Below are positions 4,552-64,000 of a stretch of DNA of 64,000 bases, one piece after another. The stretch is from the NCBI GenBank assembly GCA_002269645.1, contig NIVC01003239.1:45470-109469 (forward strand), given 5' to 3'. The position numbers and the translations under genes are program-made. This DNA is from Macrostomum lignano (taxonomy: Eukaryota). Numbering within the stretch: position 1 is the first letter of the stretch; each line of letters starts with the position of its first letter. Below the pieces are notes generated by a model. That model did no database searches, was not told the origin of the DNA, and worked only from the letters and a program-made list of their open reading frames with translations.

Positions 4552-8169
<3,618 letters not shown>

Positions 8170-23307: not shown

Positions 23308-23690
23308 CCACTGTATAGTAAAACAGGACGTAAAACTTGTAGATCGTGTAATTTTTTAGGAGGCCGATTTCCTGCAAAAAATACACTGCGGAGATAGGAA
23401 AAATTAATTTTTTTATCACAGAATCAATAGAGGGTCAGTGAAGATTACCAATACTTTAATTTAGCGTGCACATGTTAACTCTGTTGTATTTTACATTTTA
23501 TATTTATATTTTAAAGTTAGTGAAAGTATTATTTTCATTAACATGTTGTGCATGCTAAATTGAAGGAATGGAAATCTTCACTCCCCAGATCTAACGCAAT
23601 GATTAATTTTGTGATGAAAAATAATTAATTATTCCTAACTTCGCAGTGTATTTTATTCAGGAGTTTTACGTCCTGCTATGTTAACAGTGG
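23308..23690. mobile_element. Putative MITE with CACTG-type termini
   Basis: ccactgtatagtaaaacaggacgtaaaact at the left versus agttttacgtcctgctatgttaacagtgg at the right (inverted, 14-bp perfect core). No TSD seen. Confidence 0.5.
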
Positions 23691-49298: not shown

Positions 49299-50460
49299 AC
49301 CTATTCCTTGTGTTGCTAAATCTAACTCTGGGGGAGTGGTACACTGCCTGTCAAGTTCTGAGGCGACGCTTGAGATGACATCATTGGTAGACTTGTAGAG
49401 AGAATAACATTAGATAAAGTTGCTAAAGAAGAATTCTGTGCTATGGGAGATAGTGATGACATATTCTAATGTCAAACGGAACATTAGACAGCTTTTTACT
49501 TTGAAAAGCCTATTTGTTTGTTGCTGTAAAAGCTGTCTGAAATTCCTGCTGTTGATAGTACGGAAATCATTGTATCTAATGTAAATACTAATAATGTAGT
49601 TTTTTCAAAGCATCCTGCTTATTTTTTTAAATATATATTTCGTAAATATAAACTTTTAGTAAGAGTTGTACTTTTATTAGGTATGTAAAGCTCTTTTTGT
49701 TAATCTGCTACCGTCGCAAGGTACCTTTAAACTGAAAAAAAAGTTTCTAACATAAAAGACGCTAACTACGAACTTCATCGACCCGACATCAATGATGTTA
49801 CTACTCTGATTGCATTGTGTTTGTCTGAGTTCACAGAGAGACAGTAGTCTTGTAGTTTGCTAGTTCACTTCTTCGTCTGAAGCGAACAAATTGTAGGACG
49901 CTTAAATTTAACTTAAGCTAATTAACTTTTCTGGCAGTAAACAGGGTGAATTTTAACATAAGTGCCTAGGTGCTAGGCGTAGGCCTAGATATATTATGCT
50001 TAATGCTTAGAAAAAGGTTAAATACCTTTTGTTTGCGTAAAGCAATTTGATATATATATACATTTGGACTTGTATGCATATGTATACATTTGTATACATT
50101 TGGACAAAAATGATCAGTGTCTAATACTATTAGGCGGCATAGGCCTAAAGCAAAATAGACTGCAAAAGCATTAGGCCTAGAAATTTAATTTTAAGATAGG
50201 GGCCTACAAATTTTTTTTCAATTTTTTGATTAATTTTCAAAAGTATGGTTTATTTTTATTTAAGCAACTTAGATTTATCAAATAAAATAAAAATACAAGG
50301 TTATTAATATACTACTACTACTAGGTGAAATTCAAAAATTAGGGGCAAGTTCTGTCAAAATTGTTTTTGGCAATTCAGAAGTAACATGCACAACCTTGGG
50401 AATCACTTGGCCATTTCTATTGGCAACACACACACATACAAATTGCTATTGGCTAAGAGC

Positions 50461-50472
50461 AGTCACGTGACT
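50461..50472. promoter_or_regulatory. Palindromic E-box AGTCACGTGACT with neighbouring CCAAT boxes
   Basis: Perfect 12-bp palindrome. ATTGG at about 50419 and 50448, CCAAT at about 50517. Lies between the divergent UNK and RhoGDI coding starts. Confidence 0.35.
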
Positions 50473-50530
50473 AGGCCCTATTATTCTGTCTAATAGTAAT
50501 TTATATGTGTATGTTGCCAATAGAAATGGC

Positions 50531-53226: not shown

Positions 53227-56200
53227 ATGGCTGAAAAAGGCGACAATGATGATCTGGTCCCGGAGGACACTGGCTTCAAGCCGCCGGCGCCAAAGTCTCT
53301 GGACGAGATTCTCAACGCCGACAAGGACGATCCGTCCCTTGAGAATTATAAAAAGCAACTGCTCGGCAACACTGTGCCGCCTGTGTTTCCTGACAATCCT
53401 AGAAATGTGATTGTGCAGAAAATACAGATTGAATTCCTAGGCGAAAGCCGCGAGCCAGCCAACATCCAACTGATGGATGCGGATCTGTCAGTGCTTAAAA
53501 AGTCACCAATCGTGATCAAAGAAGGGGTAAATTATCGGGTGAAAGTGTTTTTCTATGTGCAACGTGAGATCGTGGCCGGTTTGCGGTACATCAACTGTTC
53601 GTACAAGATGGGCATACGAGGTGAGTTGCCCATAATGTTAGTGTGAATGCGAGTATCTAATCTAAGAAGATTCCTATCAATAAGCTGCCCCTAATCCCCC
53701 AGAAAAGTTGCCATTTGACTGCCACTAATCCTTCAGAAGTGTTGCTACTAGACTGCCACTTATCCTCCAGAAGAGTTCCCATTGGACTGGCACAAATCCT
53801 CAAGAATATTAGCCATTAGACTGGCACTAATACCCCATAAGAGTCGTCTATAGACTGGCACTAATACCCCATAAGAGTCGTCATTAGACTGGCACTAATA
53901 CCCCATAAGAGTCATCATTAGACTGGCACTAATACCCCATAAGAGTCGTCATTAGACTGGCACTAATACCCCATAAGAGTCGTCATTAGACTGGCACTAA
54001 TACCCCATAAGAGTCGTCATTAGACTGGCACTAATACCCCATAAGAGTCGTCATTAGACTGGCACTAATACCCCATAAGAGTCGTCATTAGACTGGCACT
54101 AATACCCCATAAGAGTCGTCATTAGACTGGCACTAATACCCCATAAGAGTCGTCATTAGACTGGCACTAATACCCCATAGAGTCGTCATTAGACTGGCAC
54201 TAATACCCCATAGAGTCGTCATTAGACTGGCACTAATACCCCATAAGAGTCGTCATTAGACTGGCACTAATACCCCATAAGAGTCGTCATTAGACTGGCA
54301 CTAATACCCCATAGAGTCGTCATTAGACTGGCACTAATACCCCATAGAGTCGTCATTAGACTGGCACTAATACCCCATAGAGTCGTCATTAGACTGGCAC
54401 TAATACCCCATAAGAGTCGTCATTAGACTGGCACTAATACCCCATAAGAGTCGTCATTAGACTGGCACTAATACCCCATAAGAGTCGTCATTAGACTGGC
54501 ACTAATACCCCATAAGAGTCGTCATTAGACTGGCACTAATACCCCATAGAGTCGTCATTAGACTGGCACTAATACCCCATAGAGTCGTCATTAGACTGGC
54601 ACTAATACCCCATAAGAGTCGTCATTAGACTGGCACTAATACCCCATAAGAGTCGTCATTAGACTGGCACTAATACCCCATAAGAGTCGTCATTAGACTG
54701 GCACTAATCCTCTAAAAGAGAGCCATTAGACTGGCACTAATCCTCTCAACGAGAGCCATTATACTGGCACTAATCCTCTAAAAGAGAGCCATTATACTGG
54801 CACTAATCCTCTAAAAGAGAGCCATTAGGCTGGCACTAATCCTCTAAAAGAGAGCCATTATACTGGCACTAATCCTCTAAAAGAGAGCCATTAGGCTGGC
54901 ACTAATACCCCATAAGAGTCGACATTAGACTGGCACTAATCCTCTCAAAGAGAGCCATTAGACTGGCACTAATCCTCTAAAAGAGAGCCATTATACTGGC
55001 ACTAATCATCTAAAAGAGAGCCATTAGGCTGGCACTAATCCTCTAAAAGAGAGCCATTAGACTGGCACTAATACCCCATAAGAGTCGTCATTAGACTGGC
55101 ACTAATACCCCATAAGAGTCGTCATTAGACTGGCACTAATACCCCATAAGAGTCGTCATTAGACTGGCACTAATACCCCATAAGAGTCGTCATTAGACTG
55201 GCATCCTCTCAAAGAGAGCCATTAGACTGGCATAGAAATTCTAAGCCATAGAAAAGTGCTTATTAAACGCAGCTGAAAGGAGAACGCAAAAAAGAAGTGT
55301 GTGCACAGAGTAGAAAATTTTGTATAATACTCGTAAAAAACCAACGTAACACTACAGCAATGCACATTTGGCATGACTCAAGTTCGTGTTCAGGTTGGCA
55401 ATATAGCAGAGTGTTAAGTGTGAAGCCTTAGTGTGAAGTGCTTGGGCTGTACAATGTGTAGAGTTATATGTAGTGTCCTGTGACCAGTTTAGATATTCTC
55501 TGAGCGTTTACGTGTATGGCAAATTTAGTAATCTGGCATATAATATAGCTTCAATGCGCAGTGTTTGCTTAGCAGCTGGCACAGTGGCATTATCTGTCCC
55601 AACTTTAATAGGCACAAATGAACAACTGCCGCGTCAAGTTGTATGCAATGCATTGACTTATTAAGTATGTTAACGTTTTAGTAAAGTACGTAGATTCTAA
55701 TAAATAGAGTCCCAGCCTTGACCAGCTAGCTAGCTCACTCACTGCTCAGCACCACAGCTACATAAACCCTAGATTAGTTCACCCTGGTTCCGATAGTTAT
55801 GCTTATTCCAAGGGCAGAAATAGAGGAGCTGTTTTTAGAACAATATTGCCAGAAACAAACTAAAAAAACATTTAGTAGATGATCAAATAAAGACAATAGA
55901 CAAAAAATTTAGAACAAACACAAAATTACCTATGAGTTAATGCAGAGTGACCTATCATTTAATATTGCTTTTGTCATGCTAAGTCAGCAAACAGACATTC
56001 AAAGTTGAAAGCCTACATAACAAACTCAGGTGGGGCCATAGACAACACACAAACTTGCAATTTAGCACTGACGTTAATCAACTCATTTACTGTGAAATAT
56101 AAACTGCAAGTTTATGTGCTGTCTATGGCCCAACCTGTGTTTGATCTGTAGGCTTTCAACTTTCGATGACCGTAGATGACCTTGACATGACAAATTTTGG

Positions 56201-59212: not shown

Positions 59213-59847
59213 AGATTCCCAACAATCTCACCCAGATTCCCAACAATCTCACCCAGATTCCCAACAATCTCACCCAGATTCCCAACAATCTCACCCAGAT
59301 TCCCAACAATCTCACCCAGATTCCCAACAATCTCACCCAGATTCCCAACAATCTCACCCAGATTCCCAACAATCTCATCCAGATTCCCAACAATCTCACC
59401 CAGATTCCCAACAATCTCACCCAGATTCCCAACAATCTCACCCAGATTCTCAACAATCTCACCCAGATTCCCAACAATCTCACCCAGATTCTCAACAATC
59501 TCACCCAGATTCCCAAAAATCTCAGCTAGATTCCGAACAAGCTCACCCAGATTCCCAACAAGCTCACCCAGATTCCCAAAAATCTCACCCAGATTCTCAA
59601 CAACCTCACCCAGATTCCCAAAAATCTCACCCAGATTCTCAACAACCTCACCCAGATTCCCAAAAATCTCACCCAGATTCCCACAAATCTCACCCAGATT
59701 CCCAAAAATCTCACCCAGATTCCCACAAATCTCACCCAGATTCTCAACAATCTCATCCAGATTCCCAACAATCTCACCCAGATTCCCAACAATCTCACCC
59801 AGATTCCCAACAATCTCACCCAGATTCTCAACAATCTCACCCAGATT
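59213..59847. repeat. 21-bp minisatellite (TMEM41A intron 3), cut off by the Polinton end
   Basis: Unit agattcccaacaatctcaccc, about 30 copies. The last unit stops at ...ccagatt, directly before AGTAGT. Confidence 0.95.
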
Positions 59848-60526
59848 AGTAGTATAGAAAAAGACGCTTCTAGACCCAGAGCACTTTTTTAATGACCGTT
59901 TTAAGGGTCTAGAGGGGGGACACGGGGGGTAAATAAAAAAACACATCTAAACACCCTTAACACATCTAATCACCCATAATCACCCCTGACAATAAAAATC
60001 ATTCCCAACACTTCCAAACACTCCCCAACACTCCCTCGCGTCCCCCCTCTTAAGACCTTACAAACGGTCATTAAAATAAGGTCTGATCTAGAAGCGTCTT
60101 TTTATATACTACTACTCTATAACCCCTTGCCCGCGCCGCAGGCGCGAAGGGTCACAAAAGAGTTTAAACTGAGTCATGGTAATAGTAACACTCAACAAAA
60201 AATTACTCTCATAGCCACTATTGGCTAGCTTGCAAAATCTTGCCGTAGCAGGAATTGAACGCCCACTCAGCCATCCAACTCTATAAAAACCACAGCCATC
60301 AACCCAGTTCTAGCTCATCTCTCAGGAAGAAGAAGACAGGCTCCGCGCGTCACAAGTAAAATGGGGTGCCCACCATCAATGAATAAGTTTTTAACAAATC
60401 GTCCAGAAAAATTCTGGACGTCCAGAAAAAAATGACTCAATGCAGTATATACACCATCTTGGGTTGAAAAATATTCTTTTGTGTGTTCTCGTATTCTTTT
60501 TTTCTGTTACTAAAAATAGAACAAAA

Positions 60527-60925
60527 ATGACACACGTTACACATGTGCAAAATATAAATGAGTATCAGGTAGGAGATCCAATTGAATACCGAGGTGAGGG
60601 ACTTTTTGATTTGGTTGGAACAGCAGCAAATTTTGTTAAAGACAATATGGGGCTTATAGGGCAAGCTGGCTCTGCAGCAGGCTCTATAACAAATGCTGTA
60701 AAAGGAGGAATTGAAGCAGCTAGAGCGGCAGAAGAACTAAAGAAATTGAGAGATTTTAACGACACCCTCTCACAAATAAATGCAATAAAAGATTTAAAGC
60801 TGGCACAAGCCGCACAACCAACAGAAACCCCCACGAAAACCACGCCAATAAGTAATAAAGATATTCAGGATTTTAATAAAATGTTAAATACTATTAAAGG
60901 TGGAAAAGGATTAAAGAAATTTTAA
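60527..60925 (+). CDS. Putative virion core/membrane-lytic precursor (pVI-like by analogy)
   Basis: 132 aa from the AAAAATG at 60527. YRGEG followed by the amphipathic-looking LFDLVGTAANFVKDN; C-terminal IKGGKGLKKF resembles adenain-type cleavage motifs. Confidence 0.55.
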   Translation: MTHVTHVQNINEYQVGDPIEYRGEGLFDLVGTAANFVKDNMGLIGQAGSAAGSITNAVKGGIEAARAAEELKKLRDFNDTLSQINAIKDLKLAQAAQPTETPTKTTPISNKDIQDFNKMLNTIKGGKGLKKF

Positions 60926-60935
60926 CAATATAAAA

Positions 60936-61929
60936 ATGGACTCAGTTAATGATGATGAAAACCGGTTATATTTTATAGGAGAAATTGTAGATACCTTAAA
61001 TCTTGATGATAATAAGCAAACCCACACAATGTTAAAAAGATTGGATCGATTAGGTAAAAAGTTTGACTACGACATCGATACATTTAAACTCGCAGCAAAA
61101 TATGCACAAGAAGGAAGGCCAATATCCTTTAAGAATCGCGGCAGAAATTATAGGTTGACAGACTCCGATGTGAAATTTTTAATGGAGACTCACACTAAAA
61201 AGGACGGCGGATTACTACCCATTCTACCGCTTCTTTTAGGACTTGGCGCAGCTGGAGCAGTCGGTTTAGCCGGAAAAAGAATTCATGATAATGTAAAACA
61301 GCTAGGAGAGTTAAGAGCGAAACAGGGGGGAATCTTGCCCCTTGCAGCTTTGCTCCCAATAATTTTTGCAGGAATTGGAGCAGCTGGAGGAGTTGCTGGC
61401 GGAGCAGCTGGAATTGCAAAAGCAGTAAATGACAAAAAAGCTGCGGACGAAAAAGCTAAAAGAGAGGCCGAATTTCAAAGACAGCAAATAACGCAGGACG
61501 CACAATTCAAACAGAAACTTATTGATACCATTAATAGTAGTTCAGCAACAGCAGAGCAAAAAAGAAATGCAGAAGCTAGGTTAGCAGCCGGAAAAGGTTT
61601 ACTCTTGCAAGGAACAAATCACGGAATGGTTTGGTACTAAAAGGAACAACCCAAGGAAGTGGAGTTGTCGCAGATAAACTACATGAATTTGGCCAAACTT
61701 TAGAAAAAACGGGTGAGAAAGCTAAAGGATTTTTGACAATATTGGATCCAATTTTAGGCCAGCAGTTCAGAAGATTTTTACTAAGTTAGGAAAAGATTTT
61801 AACATCATTGAAAAACACGACGGAAGCGGATTATATCTCGAAATGCGACCAAAAGCAGGTTCAGGAATTTTCTTAAATTCAAATGTTATGGGCAATGGAT
61901 TGCTATTACCAAAAGCAGATCTCGAATAG
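60936..61929 (+). CDS. Adenovirus pX-like core protein with GxGLxL repeats (two -1 frameshifts in this sequence)
   Basis: The ORF to 61640 has KDGGLLPILPLLLG and KQGGILPLAALLPIIFAGIGAAGGVAGGAAGIAKAVND. Shifts at about 61625 and 61732 continue into HGNGLVL, DGSGLYL, AGSGIFL and MGNGLLL, ending at a stop at 61929. Confidence 0.75.
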
Positions 61930-62009
61930 ACTCCGGGGGTGGGTCAAGACACCAAAAACGCAAATTAAAAATCAATAATTCAAACATTATATAAATTTTA
62001 TTCTATAAA

Positions 62010-64000
62010 ATGGAAGCAATTTTAGCTCAAATCGACAACCCTGAACTTAGAGCACAATTAATAGCTCAAATCGATGCACAACGAATTGCCGATAGGGCTG
62101 AAATAGAAGCAAGAATTAGGGCAGAAAATGAGATACGTTTAGAAAGACAATTAAATGATATTAATAACCCCAACCACAAGGACAAAATGGAGCTGAAGTA
62201 ATATATATAGATATAGATATAAATACAAATTATAAAGAATATTTTAAACAAATGAAAGATAAATTAAAGACTATATTAAACAATTATACTATAAGGCCAA
62301 ATAACAAACGACAGCCAATTAAGTATAAAATAGAAGTTGAAACAGAATTTAAAAAACCAAATATTCTTAATGCAAATTCAGAAATTGAAGTAATAAATAA
62401 CTTTTCACAAGAATCATATAAAACATTATTATCAATGGGAAATTACAACAATCAATTCGATCAAATAGAAGCTGAGTTTGATGAATGGATAGATAAGATG
62501 ACAGAAAACGGATCTGGGTTTATATTTGTATCTTGTAATTCAGCAATAGTAAAGATTGCACCTATAGAAATTCTTAAAGGACGATCACATATGAAGCTCA
62601 AATTTAAATCACCTATGATTATAAATCCAGACAATAAAGATAATAAATGTTTATTATGGTGTTTATTAATTCATAAATATCACAATCAAGTAGAATCACA
62701 CATTAATAAAATATATAATTATAGACAATATGAGGATGAAATAATAATGAAAAACATATCATACCCAGTAGCAATAGATGATATATATAAGATTGAAAAA
62801 ATGAATGGTTTAAATATTAATGTTTTTACAATTGAAGAACCAGAAGATCTAGAAGAAATTCAGCAGGTCGATCCAGAATGGTATAAGAAAAGGTGTTATC
62901 TTGTTAAGCCAGCAACTGATATAACAGCACCAGATCAAATCGATCTTTTGTACATGCAGCGCGAAAATGAAACACATTATATATACATAAAAGATATTAG
63001 TTCTTTTTTAAGAGAAAATAGAAATAGATATCCACTATGTAGAAATTGTTTTACATTTAAAAAGGATGAAACAGCTCTTAAAAACCACCAACGATTTTGT
63101 TTAGATCACAAATTTACTAATGCTATAATGCCAGCATCTTCAGATGCAACCCTAAAGTTCCAACAACATTATATGGCAGTTAAAAAACCAATAGTAATAT
63201 ATGCTGATTTTGAAGCAACAAATGTTCCTTAAAAGAATCACAGACGGCATCTGATGACGGTCATGCAAAGCATGCGACCCTACGGGACGGTGAATGCACA
63301 AAAAAATTAGCACAACAGTTTCCTAATAGTTATTGTTTATATGTACACTCGTAGCTGATCATATATTTAAATCAAGGATGATTACTTACCACGGTAATGA
63401 TGCAGCTAAGCACATGGCAGAATCATTAGTAAATGTATTTGAATATATTCAAAATCAATATGATAAATTATCAAAAAATATTAATATGACAAATAAGGAT
63501 AGAGACAATTATAAAAATGCAACAAATTGTTTTATGTGCAAAAGATATTTAAGTAAGAAAATAAGATACGAGAACATTGTCATCTAACGGGAAAATATCG
63601 AGGGGCAGCATGTAGATCATGTAATGCAAAAGAAGGAAAAGGATGTAAGGAAATACCAGTATTTTTTCATAATGGTTCCGGATATGATTTTCATTTCTTA
63701 GTTCGAGAATTGCTTCATTTAGGAAAGGATGAATATGAAATAAATATATTACCTAAAACATCAGAAAATTACATATCAATAACATATGGTAAGAAATACT
63801 CCCATCTAGTTTTTCTAGATTCCTTGAGATTCTTATCAACATCTTTAGCAAATGTTGTTTCATCATTAGTTCCAAAACCATGGATTTAGAAATAGTAAAG
63901 AAAAACTTTCCAATACTATTGAATCGTTTCAAAAAGGAAAAACTATCCGAGGAAGAACTAATGCTATTAACTCGTAAGGGCATCTACCCATATGAATATG
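62010..64000 (+). CDS. Protein-primed family-B DNA polymerase (N-terminal region, exonuclease, inserted EndoVII-like Zn module); five -1 frameshifts
   Basis: ENGSGF, NKDNKCLLWC, YPV..DDI.KIEK.N.LNINVF, THYIYIKD, IYADFE (ExoI), HCHLTGKYRGAACRSCN, PVFFHNGSGYDFHF (ExoII), FLDSLRFL and LLTRKGIYPYEY, read across shifts at about 62170, 63229, 63348, 63570 and 63875. Confidence 0.9.

Follow-up and report, generated by a model that had tools for sequence, protein, structure and literature searches.

Parvoviruses carry hairpin termini and replicate by a rolling-hairpin mechanism, in which terminal resolution gives flip and flop orientations. Polintons (Mavericks, adintoviruses) end in the motif 5'-(AGT)2//(ACT)2-3', with reported terminal inverted repeats (TIRs) of 46–1447 bp, and the (AGT)2 ends are used for jumping-back during protein priming (PMC8097293); their protein-primed family B polymerases (pPolBs) carry a terminal-protein (TP) domain (bioRxiv 2024.03.18.585575). 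Panhandles formed by TIRs are described as origins on single strands for pPolB replicons (PMC4046053), and the current model of Polinton replication in the available literature is an inferred long-range panhandle between the two TIRs. The main text of PMC8097293 contains neither 'palindrom' nor 'hairpin', and pPolB Polinton ends with a terminal fold-back are not mentioned in the available portions of that paper or of bioRxiv 2023.08.22.554363, PMC8502044, bioRxiv 2024.01.15.575659, bioRxiv 2025.02.07.637071, and PMC6431247. Nor did the listings of a wider literature search describe such a structure, although Kapitonov and Jurka 2006, Pritham 2007, Repbase entries, or supplements may do so.

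Fold-back termini have been described in other systems, as far as the accessible parts of the cited texts go. The endogenous virophages of Halocafeteria seosinensis and PLV subtype 4 have terminal palindromes beside the target site duplication (TSD), for which hairpin priming was proposed (bioRxiv 10.64898/2026.07.28.741278); these palindromes are short, with a length of 52 nt in subtype 5, came from a search with a gap limit of 10 nt, and mostly accompany non-pPolB replication genes. Casposons are also self-synthesising elements, with internal palindromes in some TIRs and a panhandle model, but unlike the element described here they are prokaryotic and use a Cas1 integrase (PMC4046053). At the TP-capped telomeres of Streptomyces, the terminal sequence is complementary to an inner copy and GCA-loop hairpins occur; there, ends are patched by the bacterial Tap/Tpg system and repaired via a 13-nt terminal hairpin (PMC4513846, PMC5449611). 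In this fold-back repair, the short Palindrome I hairpin acts, whereas the long-range 'Rabbit Ears' pairing does not repair (PMC5449611).

The window, that is, the whole 64-kb stretch of DNA analysed here, contains the left part of an element that is a Polinton, with a polymerase gene that is broken in this copy. The host is a eukaryote rich in repeats and is probably an animal. Like the described Polinton/Maverick ends, its left end has the terminal motif, a pPolB nearby, multicopy insertion, and a 306-bp block within the reported TIR range; unlike them, as far as the available descriptions go, it has an inner inverted copy of the tip, which creates a 266-nt fold-back, and a GCA hairpin. Like the Halocafeteria palindromes, it belongs to an integrated Polisuviricotina element and folds back from the terminal base onwards, but its arms are ~81 nt long and imperfect (83%), its loop has 104 nt, and a pPolB is present. 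The complementarity of the terminal sequence to an inner copy and the GCA loop recall Streptomyces telomeres, although the loop lies on the 5'-end strand here, unlike in the available descriptions of Streptomyces. The features discussed below are as follows.

59213–59847, no strand: 21-bp satellite array of 30.2 units (TRF), host DNA in which the element is inserted
59848–59928, plus strand: outer arm, whose opening AGTAGTATAG starts with (AGT)2, the end motif of Polintons; the true left terminus
59929–60032, plus strand: A/C-rich loop (minus strand G/T-rich, with G runs) containing short direct repeats
60033–60118, minus strand: inner arm, which repeats the tip in inverted orientation, with the register kept up to 60113 and extra ACT and CT beyond it
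60117–60153, plus strand: small hairpin at the inner edge of the family-wide terminal block, from the fold and the depth step
60154–60496, no strand: minority segment, with summed depth 7–18x below that of the ORFs; skipped or replaced in other copies
60440–60925, plus strand: ORF1, 161 aa, without family match
60936–61640, plus strand: ORF2 (234 aa), one stretch of which weakly resembles adenovirus pX; candidate adintovirus-type core protein
62168–64000, plus strand: broken protein-primed polymerase B gene of the Polinton, with an endonuclease VII-like domain

The left tip of a Polinton and its fold-back

The polymerase gene starts 2.3 kb inward of the left tip and is broken by a stop at 63230–63232, with further pieces at 63330–63587, 63557–63889, and from 63793 to the end of the window. 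Its N-terminal piece had 26 homologues of 597–1409 aa and nothing better than E 0.016 among solved structures, and the polymerase aligned with P0001 at 27% identity over 339 aa. The stretch 63557–63886 matched PF02945 (Endonuclease_7; E 1.6e-6) and PF03175 (DNA_pol_B_2; E 3e-6, above the cut-off); PF03175 and the 26 long homologues identify the protein-primed family B polymerase that characterises Polintons. Other hallmarks of Polintons are genes for an rve integrase, a packaging ATPase, a protease, and a capsid, an (AGT)2 or (AG)3 end motif, and TIRs at both ends with a 6-bp TSD. The match of ORF2 to PF05829 (E 0.0029) fell under the curated cut-off, and its ESM Atlas matches of 0.91–0.92 to Preplasmiviricota-type clusters correspond to recognition under the reliable level. 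No Rep/NS1 HUH nickase was found in the nine ORF pieces scanned between 60440 and 64000, the window ending inside the polymerase gene.

BLASTN of the fold-back unit against the window aligned 59843–59928 with 60033–60118 over 88 columns at 83% identity (E 2.5e-18), and no second copy of the unit was present in the 64 kb. The original prediction had described a 269-bp fold-back left end with arms at 59848–59920 and 60041–60116; the imperfect inverted copies proved real, but the arms reach further inward, and the spacer, put at ~120 bp, is a loop of 104 nt. The mirror base of 59848 is 60113, in exact register, and the fold-back is therefore 59848–60113, or 266 nt, in length, with an inner arm that is longer by ACT and CT at 60114–60118. 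Its first base being 59848, the palindrome stands at the terminus and adjoins the host junction. The outermost 27 columns of the arms are matched at 26 positions, the next ~13 contain indels, and the inner half is well paired, for an arm divergence of 17%. The inner tip is not a free end in either the integrated or the linear element.

Single-strand folding, which had been suggested as a check, gave −60.96 kcal/mol for 59848–60116 (z −13.7), a value reached by none of 200 shuffles, and −70.85 kcal/mol for the minus strand of 59848–60160 (z −13.5), reached by none of 100. In the predicted minus-strand fold, the 3'-terminal base would be paired, with template ahead of it. At 60068, most of the summed contig depth in the sequencing runs described below carries a different letter, which disrupts a pair present in the window copy.

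The loop has a plus-strand composition of A46 C36 T20 G2, and the short direct repeats claimed for the spacer are indeed there: ACACATCTAA at 59941 and 59960, CCCAACAC at 60004 and 60024, and CCAAACAC at 60014. On the minus strand, which carries the 3' tip, the loop is G/T-rich with several G runs. Derivation of the satellite from the loop was considered and rejected, as 195 of 1000 shuffles scored equally well. An Rfam search of the window returned no family.

The terminal block in other copies

Part of 59848–62200 was present in 16 of the 20 listed sequencing runs, from six studies. Four runs from four studies (X2, X12, X15, and X5), one of which may be the window's own source, were mapped on 59806–61305; runs with small word shares (X9, X10, and X17–X20) were left out of the copy comparison. 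Since every piece is a contig, depth is a sum rather than a copy number, and the positions of its steps were mainly used. The listings covered 24 of the 242 loose ends, 40 of the 165 differences, and 32 of the ~1960 pieces.

Satellite sequence goes on past 59847 in contigs from X2, X15, and X5, which represent the empty satellite site, and in 10 X5 contigs the loose letters before 59848 agreed at 0.53. The varied flanks and the empty site indicate that 59848 is the true end of an element inserted at many sites; AGTAGT at 59848 places the (AGT)2 motif at a true insertion boundary, as in Polintons. The predicted left TSD is CAGATT, the last six satellite bases (59842–59847), the right end lying outside the window. 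An extension of the arm pairing by five bases into the flank (AGATT vs AGAGT) was not accepted as part of the arm and is read as chance or target preference, because the loose ends start at 59848.

Next to the inner arm lies a small hairpin with a stem at 60124–60151 and the core CGCGCC-GCA-GGCGCG at 60132–60146, GCA being the loop (−11.2 kcal/mol; equal or better in 3 of 200 shuffles). The depth step was located at ~60153, not at 60116, in all four runs. Observed depth in the bin 60106–60155 was 49913, 8299, 2684, and 799 in X2, X12, X15, and X5, respectively, where a block ending at 60116 would give 13370, 3046, 526, and 181, and one ending at 60153 would give 51534, 11186, 1719, and 599. 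As there is no step at the inner tip, the shared block includes the 37-nt piece with the GCA-loop hairpin (60117–60153), which travels with the fold-back unit and was absent from the original prediction. The 306 bp from 59848 to 60153 are the conserved terminal block of a multicopy endogenous Polinton, and probably all or part of its TIR. To the right of the block, GC drops to 0.33.

Joints from 60153 to 60497 were found in X2, X12, and X15 (three of four runs), and single contigs extended over 60124–60527 (X15) and 60124–60442 (X5); the terminal block is thus tied to the ORF region in other copies as well. In each of the four runs, a minority of copies contain the 343-bp segment at 60154–60496; it includes a hairpin at 60400–60427 (z −6.1) and, near 60284, a TATA-like word, and possibly represents an exchangeable promoter module.

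These data bear on the proposal of a mini non-autonomous element built from two tips. It is very unlikely that the 266-bp unit exists mostly as a free mini-Polinton, a non-autonomous element (MITE) that abuts the Polinton here by chance. Such a reading accords with the two proper tips of a short, TIR-bearing, non-coding unit, with a unit/ORF summed depth of 3.7 in X12, and with three X12 contigs that diverge behind 60115 (among the 24 of 242 loose ends listed). Against it, the unit/ORF ratio was 1.0–1.3 in the other three runs, the inner-tip step is absent from all four, the three X12 loose ends agree mutually (0.81), unlike host flanks, and the 64 kb hold no second copy. Moreover, no TSD was found around the 266-nt unit (CAGATT on the left vs ACTCTA or CTATAA on the right). 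The original prediction had reported this absence correctly and turned it against a MITE, an argument that is weak alone because a single tip of a long element is never enclosed by a TSD. Depth and loose ends show no common free-standing MITE, and a minority of free copies may occur alongside Polinton tips. The loop/ORF depth ratios (0.84, 2.75, 0.63, and 0.44 over the four runs) did not indicate two copies per element.

It is scarcely credible that the structure is a chimera of the assembly, or that it goes back to a single capture of an end-to-end replication intermediate at this locus. No contig bridging 60116 with 31 letters on each side was present among the 32 of ~1960 pieces listed, as a chimera would have it, but the fold-back junction is contained in most of the summed depth of four runs from four studies, and a diverged copy has the same junction. 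In addition, the 17% divergence and the indels between the arms speak against a fresh junction, in which both arms would be identical. The diverged copy was represented by two X15 contigs, in which an (ACT)3 run and TATAACCCC are kept before the hairpin and the arm is different. In one X2 contig and one X12 contig, other A/C-rich letters are joined before 60116.

Taken together, the varied flanks, the empty site, and the missing depth step at the inner tip identify the fold-back as a standing terminal structure of the family, and it is highly probable that the family inherited it and that it was not made at this locus. Among the earlier options, a hairpin-capable Polinton terminus fits what was found: a real left tip of a pPolB element, with a block common to copies in four studies.

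Ends of related polymerase loci

A 27-mer of the arm had no match in metagenome contigs; in viral contigs, a 17-mer of the arm had five matches, all unrelated, and the small hairpin had none. Relatives were compared through the polymerase: an alignment of 19 of the 26 homologues led to 80 metagenome loci (the best 80 of 577 confirmed) and 29 viral loci; rve integrase and ATPase genes accompany PolB in relatives among them. With a threshold of 40 bits for each arm, fold-backs within 450 nt were present at 8 of these 109 loci. As background, 74 loci were taken from viral contigs with tip-pair patterns at gaps of 100–130 and 235–265 nt; none encoded a PolB relative, one passed the arm score (low complexity), and 12, from five contigs, had fold-backs, 11 of them belonging to one repeat family. 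Because the background loci were selected for the motif pair, enrichment in the polymerase loci is not claimed either way.

Ten candidate ends, hand-picked by end motif or TIR, were searched for an inverted copy of their first 60 nt within 600 nt. One showed the full layout, two had inner copies lacking the tip, and seven had none. The full layout was found at L047, where a 132-nt fold-back has AGTAGTATAG at both ends and arms otherwise unlike those of the window; the locus carries PolB and then an rve integrase (E 9.5e-9), and the fold-back qualifies as a candidate end solely by its motif and by lying 99 bp from where the contig stops. The spare AGT unit of the window copy is absent from L047. 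The 10-mer AGTAGTATAG also begins the candidate ends of L016 and L077. L078, which carries PolB, ATPase, and integrase, starts with a 249-nt fold-back (3–251) whose inner copy lacks the tip, and three inner copies of a subterminal block, again without the tip, occur in L077 (1032–1345). Inner-copy scores were 79, 96, and 47 for L047, L078, and L077, respectively, against shuffle maxima of 25–27 (26 for L047). The seven ends without an inner copy include L016, with the same 10-mer tip, and L092, L098, L108, and L113, which may not be true tips; the lack of an inner copy at seven of ten ends implies that the structure is dispensable in the group.

The family-wide fold-back tip is thus real, recurs in at least one distant relative, and is absent from most. 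Terminal palindromes, described for protist virophages, are hereby extended to pPolB elements.

Several other structures were observed. The loop of L078 is packed with 12-nt direct repeats and resembles the repeat-filled loop of the window. In the Polinton contig L001, a 184-nt fold-back (4657–4840) separates the integrase region from PolB; its AGTAGT-like motifs are directed to the genes, a polarity opposite to that in the window, and the fold-back is possibly a circle or concatemer junction. Strong hairpins occur slightly inside the candidate end of L011 (134–192) and just upstream of PolB in L045 (5043–5153). The related viral contigs L103 and L104 have dispersed 24-nt perfect palindromes in intergenic positions (e.g., L104 5705–5884). 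Four viral contigs without a PolB relative contain a 211-nt fold-back rich in AGTAGTATA (L117–L119, L133–L134, L139–L141, and L147–L149), which lies in a unit that recurs at a spacing of 1.4–1.8 kb.

Possible roles of the inner tip

Overall, we consider it probable, with moderate confidence, that the locus represents a conserved Polinton terminal block with a family-inherited fold-back, whose likeliest use is local origin rebuilding or tip repair. As to the use itself, we suggest tentatively that a displaced single strand folds locally and either rebuilds a duplex origin or repairs the tip. The TP-pPolB would still start replication by protein priming at the outer (AGT)2 tip. In a single-stranded element, present as an excised or displaced strand, each tip would pair with its inner mirror copy 266 nt away; such local pairing could rebuild the duplex origin with no wait for the far TIR 15–20 kb off, and a shortened 3' tip could be restored on the inner-copy template, with one spare AGT unit. 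The small GCA hairpin would mark the inner edge and might, speculatively, be a binding or pause site. Streptomyces offers a precedent for fold-back repair at TP-capped ends, although the closest geometry there, the 'Rabbit Ears', is not the repairer in the available account. The layout suggests a route of origin rebuilding or repair that is not known for Polintons.

A neutral relic is the less likely but weighty alternative. An ancestral copy-back by template switch, or a two-tip mini-element fused to a truncated Polinton, would have left an inner tip that hitch-hikes because only the outer tip matters. The 83% arms with indels, the lack of the structure at 7 of 10 related ends, and the variation of the loop and inner halves between subfamilies (joints with other letters between) all agree with such an origin, and repeated copy-back errors could yield L047 without selection. 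However, the diverged subfamily retains the inner (ACT)3 beside the hairpin despite its changed arm, the tip-proximal columns are the best kept (26 of 27), and a captured mini-element bears no TSD mark here.

Parvovirus-like self-priming appears improbable. Here, the 3' tip would pair with the inner copy and extend inward, and the EndoVII-like domain would nick the hairpin and regenerate the ends. The likeness to parvovirus termini lies in the predicted fold, in which the 3' end can pair back, facing template; the window element differs by its 104-nt open loop, and neither a Rep/NS1 gene, in the 4 kb covered, nor flip-flop, in the joints listed, was observed. The paired 3'-terminal base of the modelled minus strand, the hairpin priming proposed for the palindromic ends of the Halocafeteria virophages and PLVs (bioRxiv 10.64898/2026.07.28.741278), and the PF02945 match in the window's polymerase would be in line with self-priming. 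Against this, the element retains its pPolB and jumping-back motif, whereas the Halocafeteria palindromes mostly accompany non-pPolB genes in the available text, and nuclease insertions of this kind are ascribed to intein invasion (bioRxiv 2024.03.18.585575, in the part available). Flip-flop inversion was not seen: none of the 11 listed joints changes strand, a weak test given short unitigs, incomplete listings, and tips that are distinct in just 1 of 27 columns. The consensus of the loose ends in front of 59848 does not correspond to the inner flank either.

A tight link between the EndoVII motif and fold-backs was also considered and was not supported: the motif occurs at 65 of the 109 polymerase loci, with fold-backs present or absent, including L092, L103, and L113, whose examined ends have none. 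We likewise doubt that a lineage of pPolB Polintons combines, in a hybrid end, protein priming at the tip with self-priming through a hairpin on the inner mirror tip; the endonuclease VII-like domain of the polymerase would then carry out the resolution, and the two-tip unit could be excised as a mini-element. If such an end were true, Polinton termini would be connected with hairpin replication of the parvovirus type, and the inserted nuclease domain would have a function. A 300-nt tip substrate could separate self-priming, tip repair, and local rebuilding of the origin in vitro.

For annotation, such tips are prone to being miscalled as MITEs or to giving wrong element boundaries. Other short palindromic elements in the window, at 55970–56194, 23370–23662, and 50410–50530, have arms of 69–77% identity and are probably MITEs. 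The window also contains a 2-kb TCTA microsatellite at 4933–6962 and dozens of minisatellite arrays.
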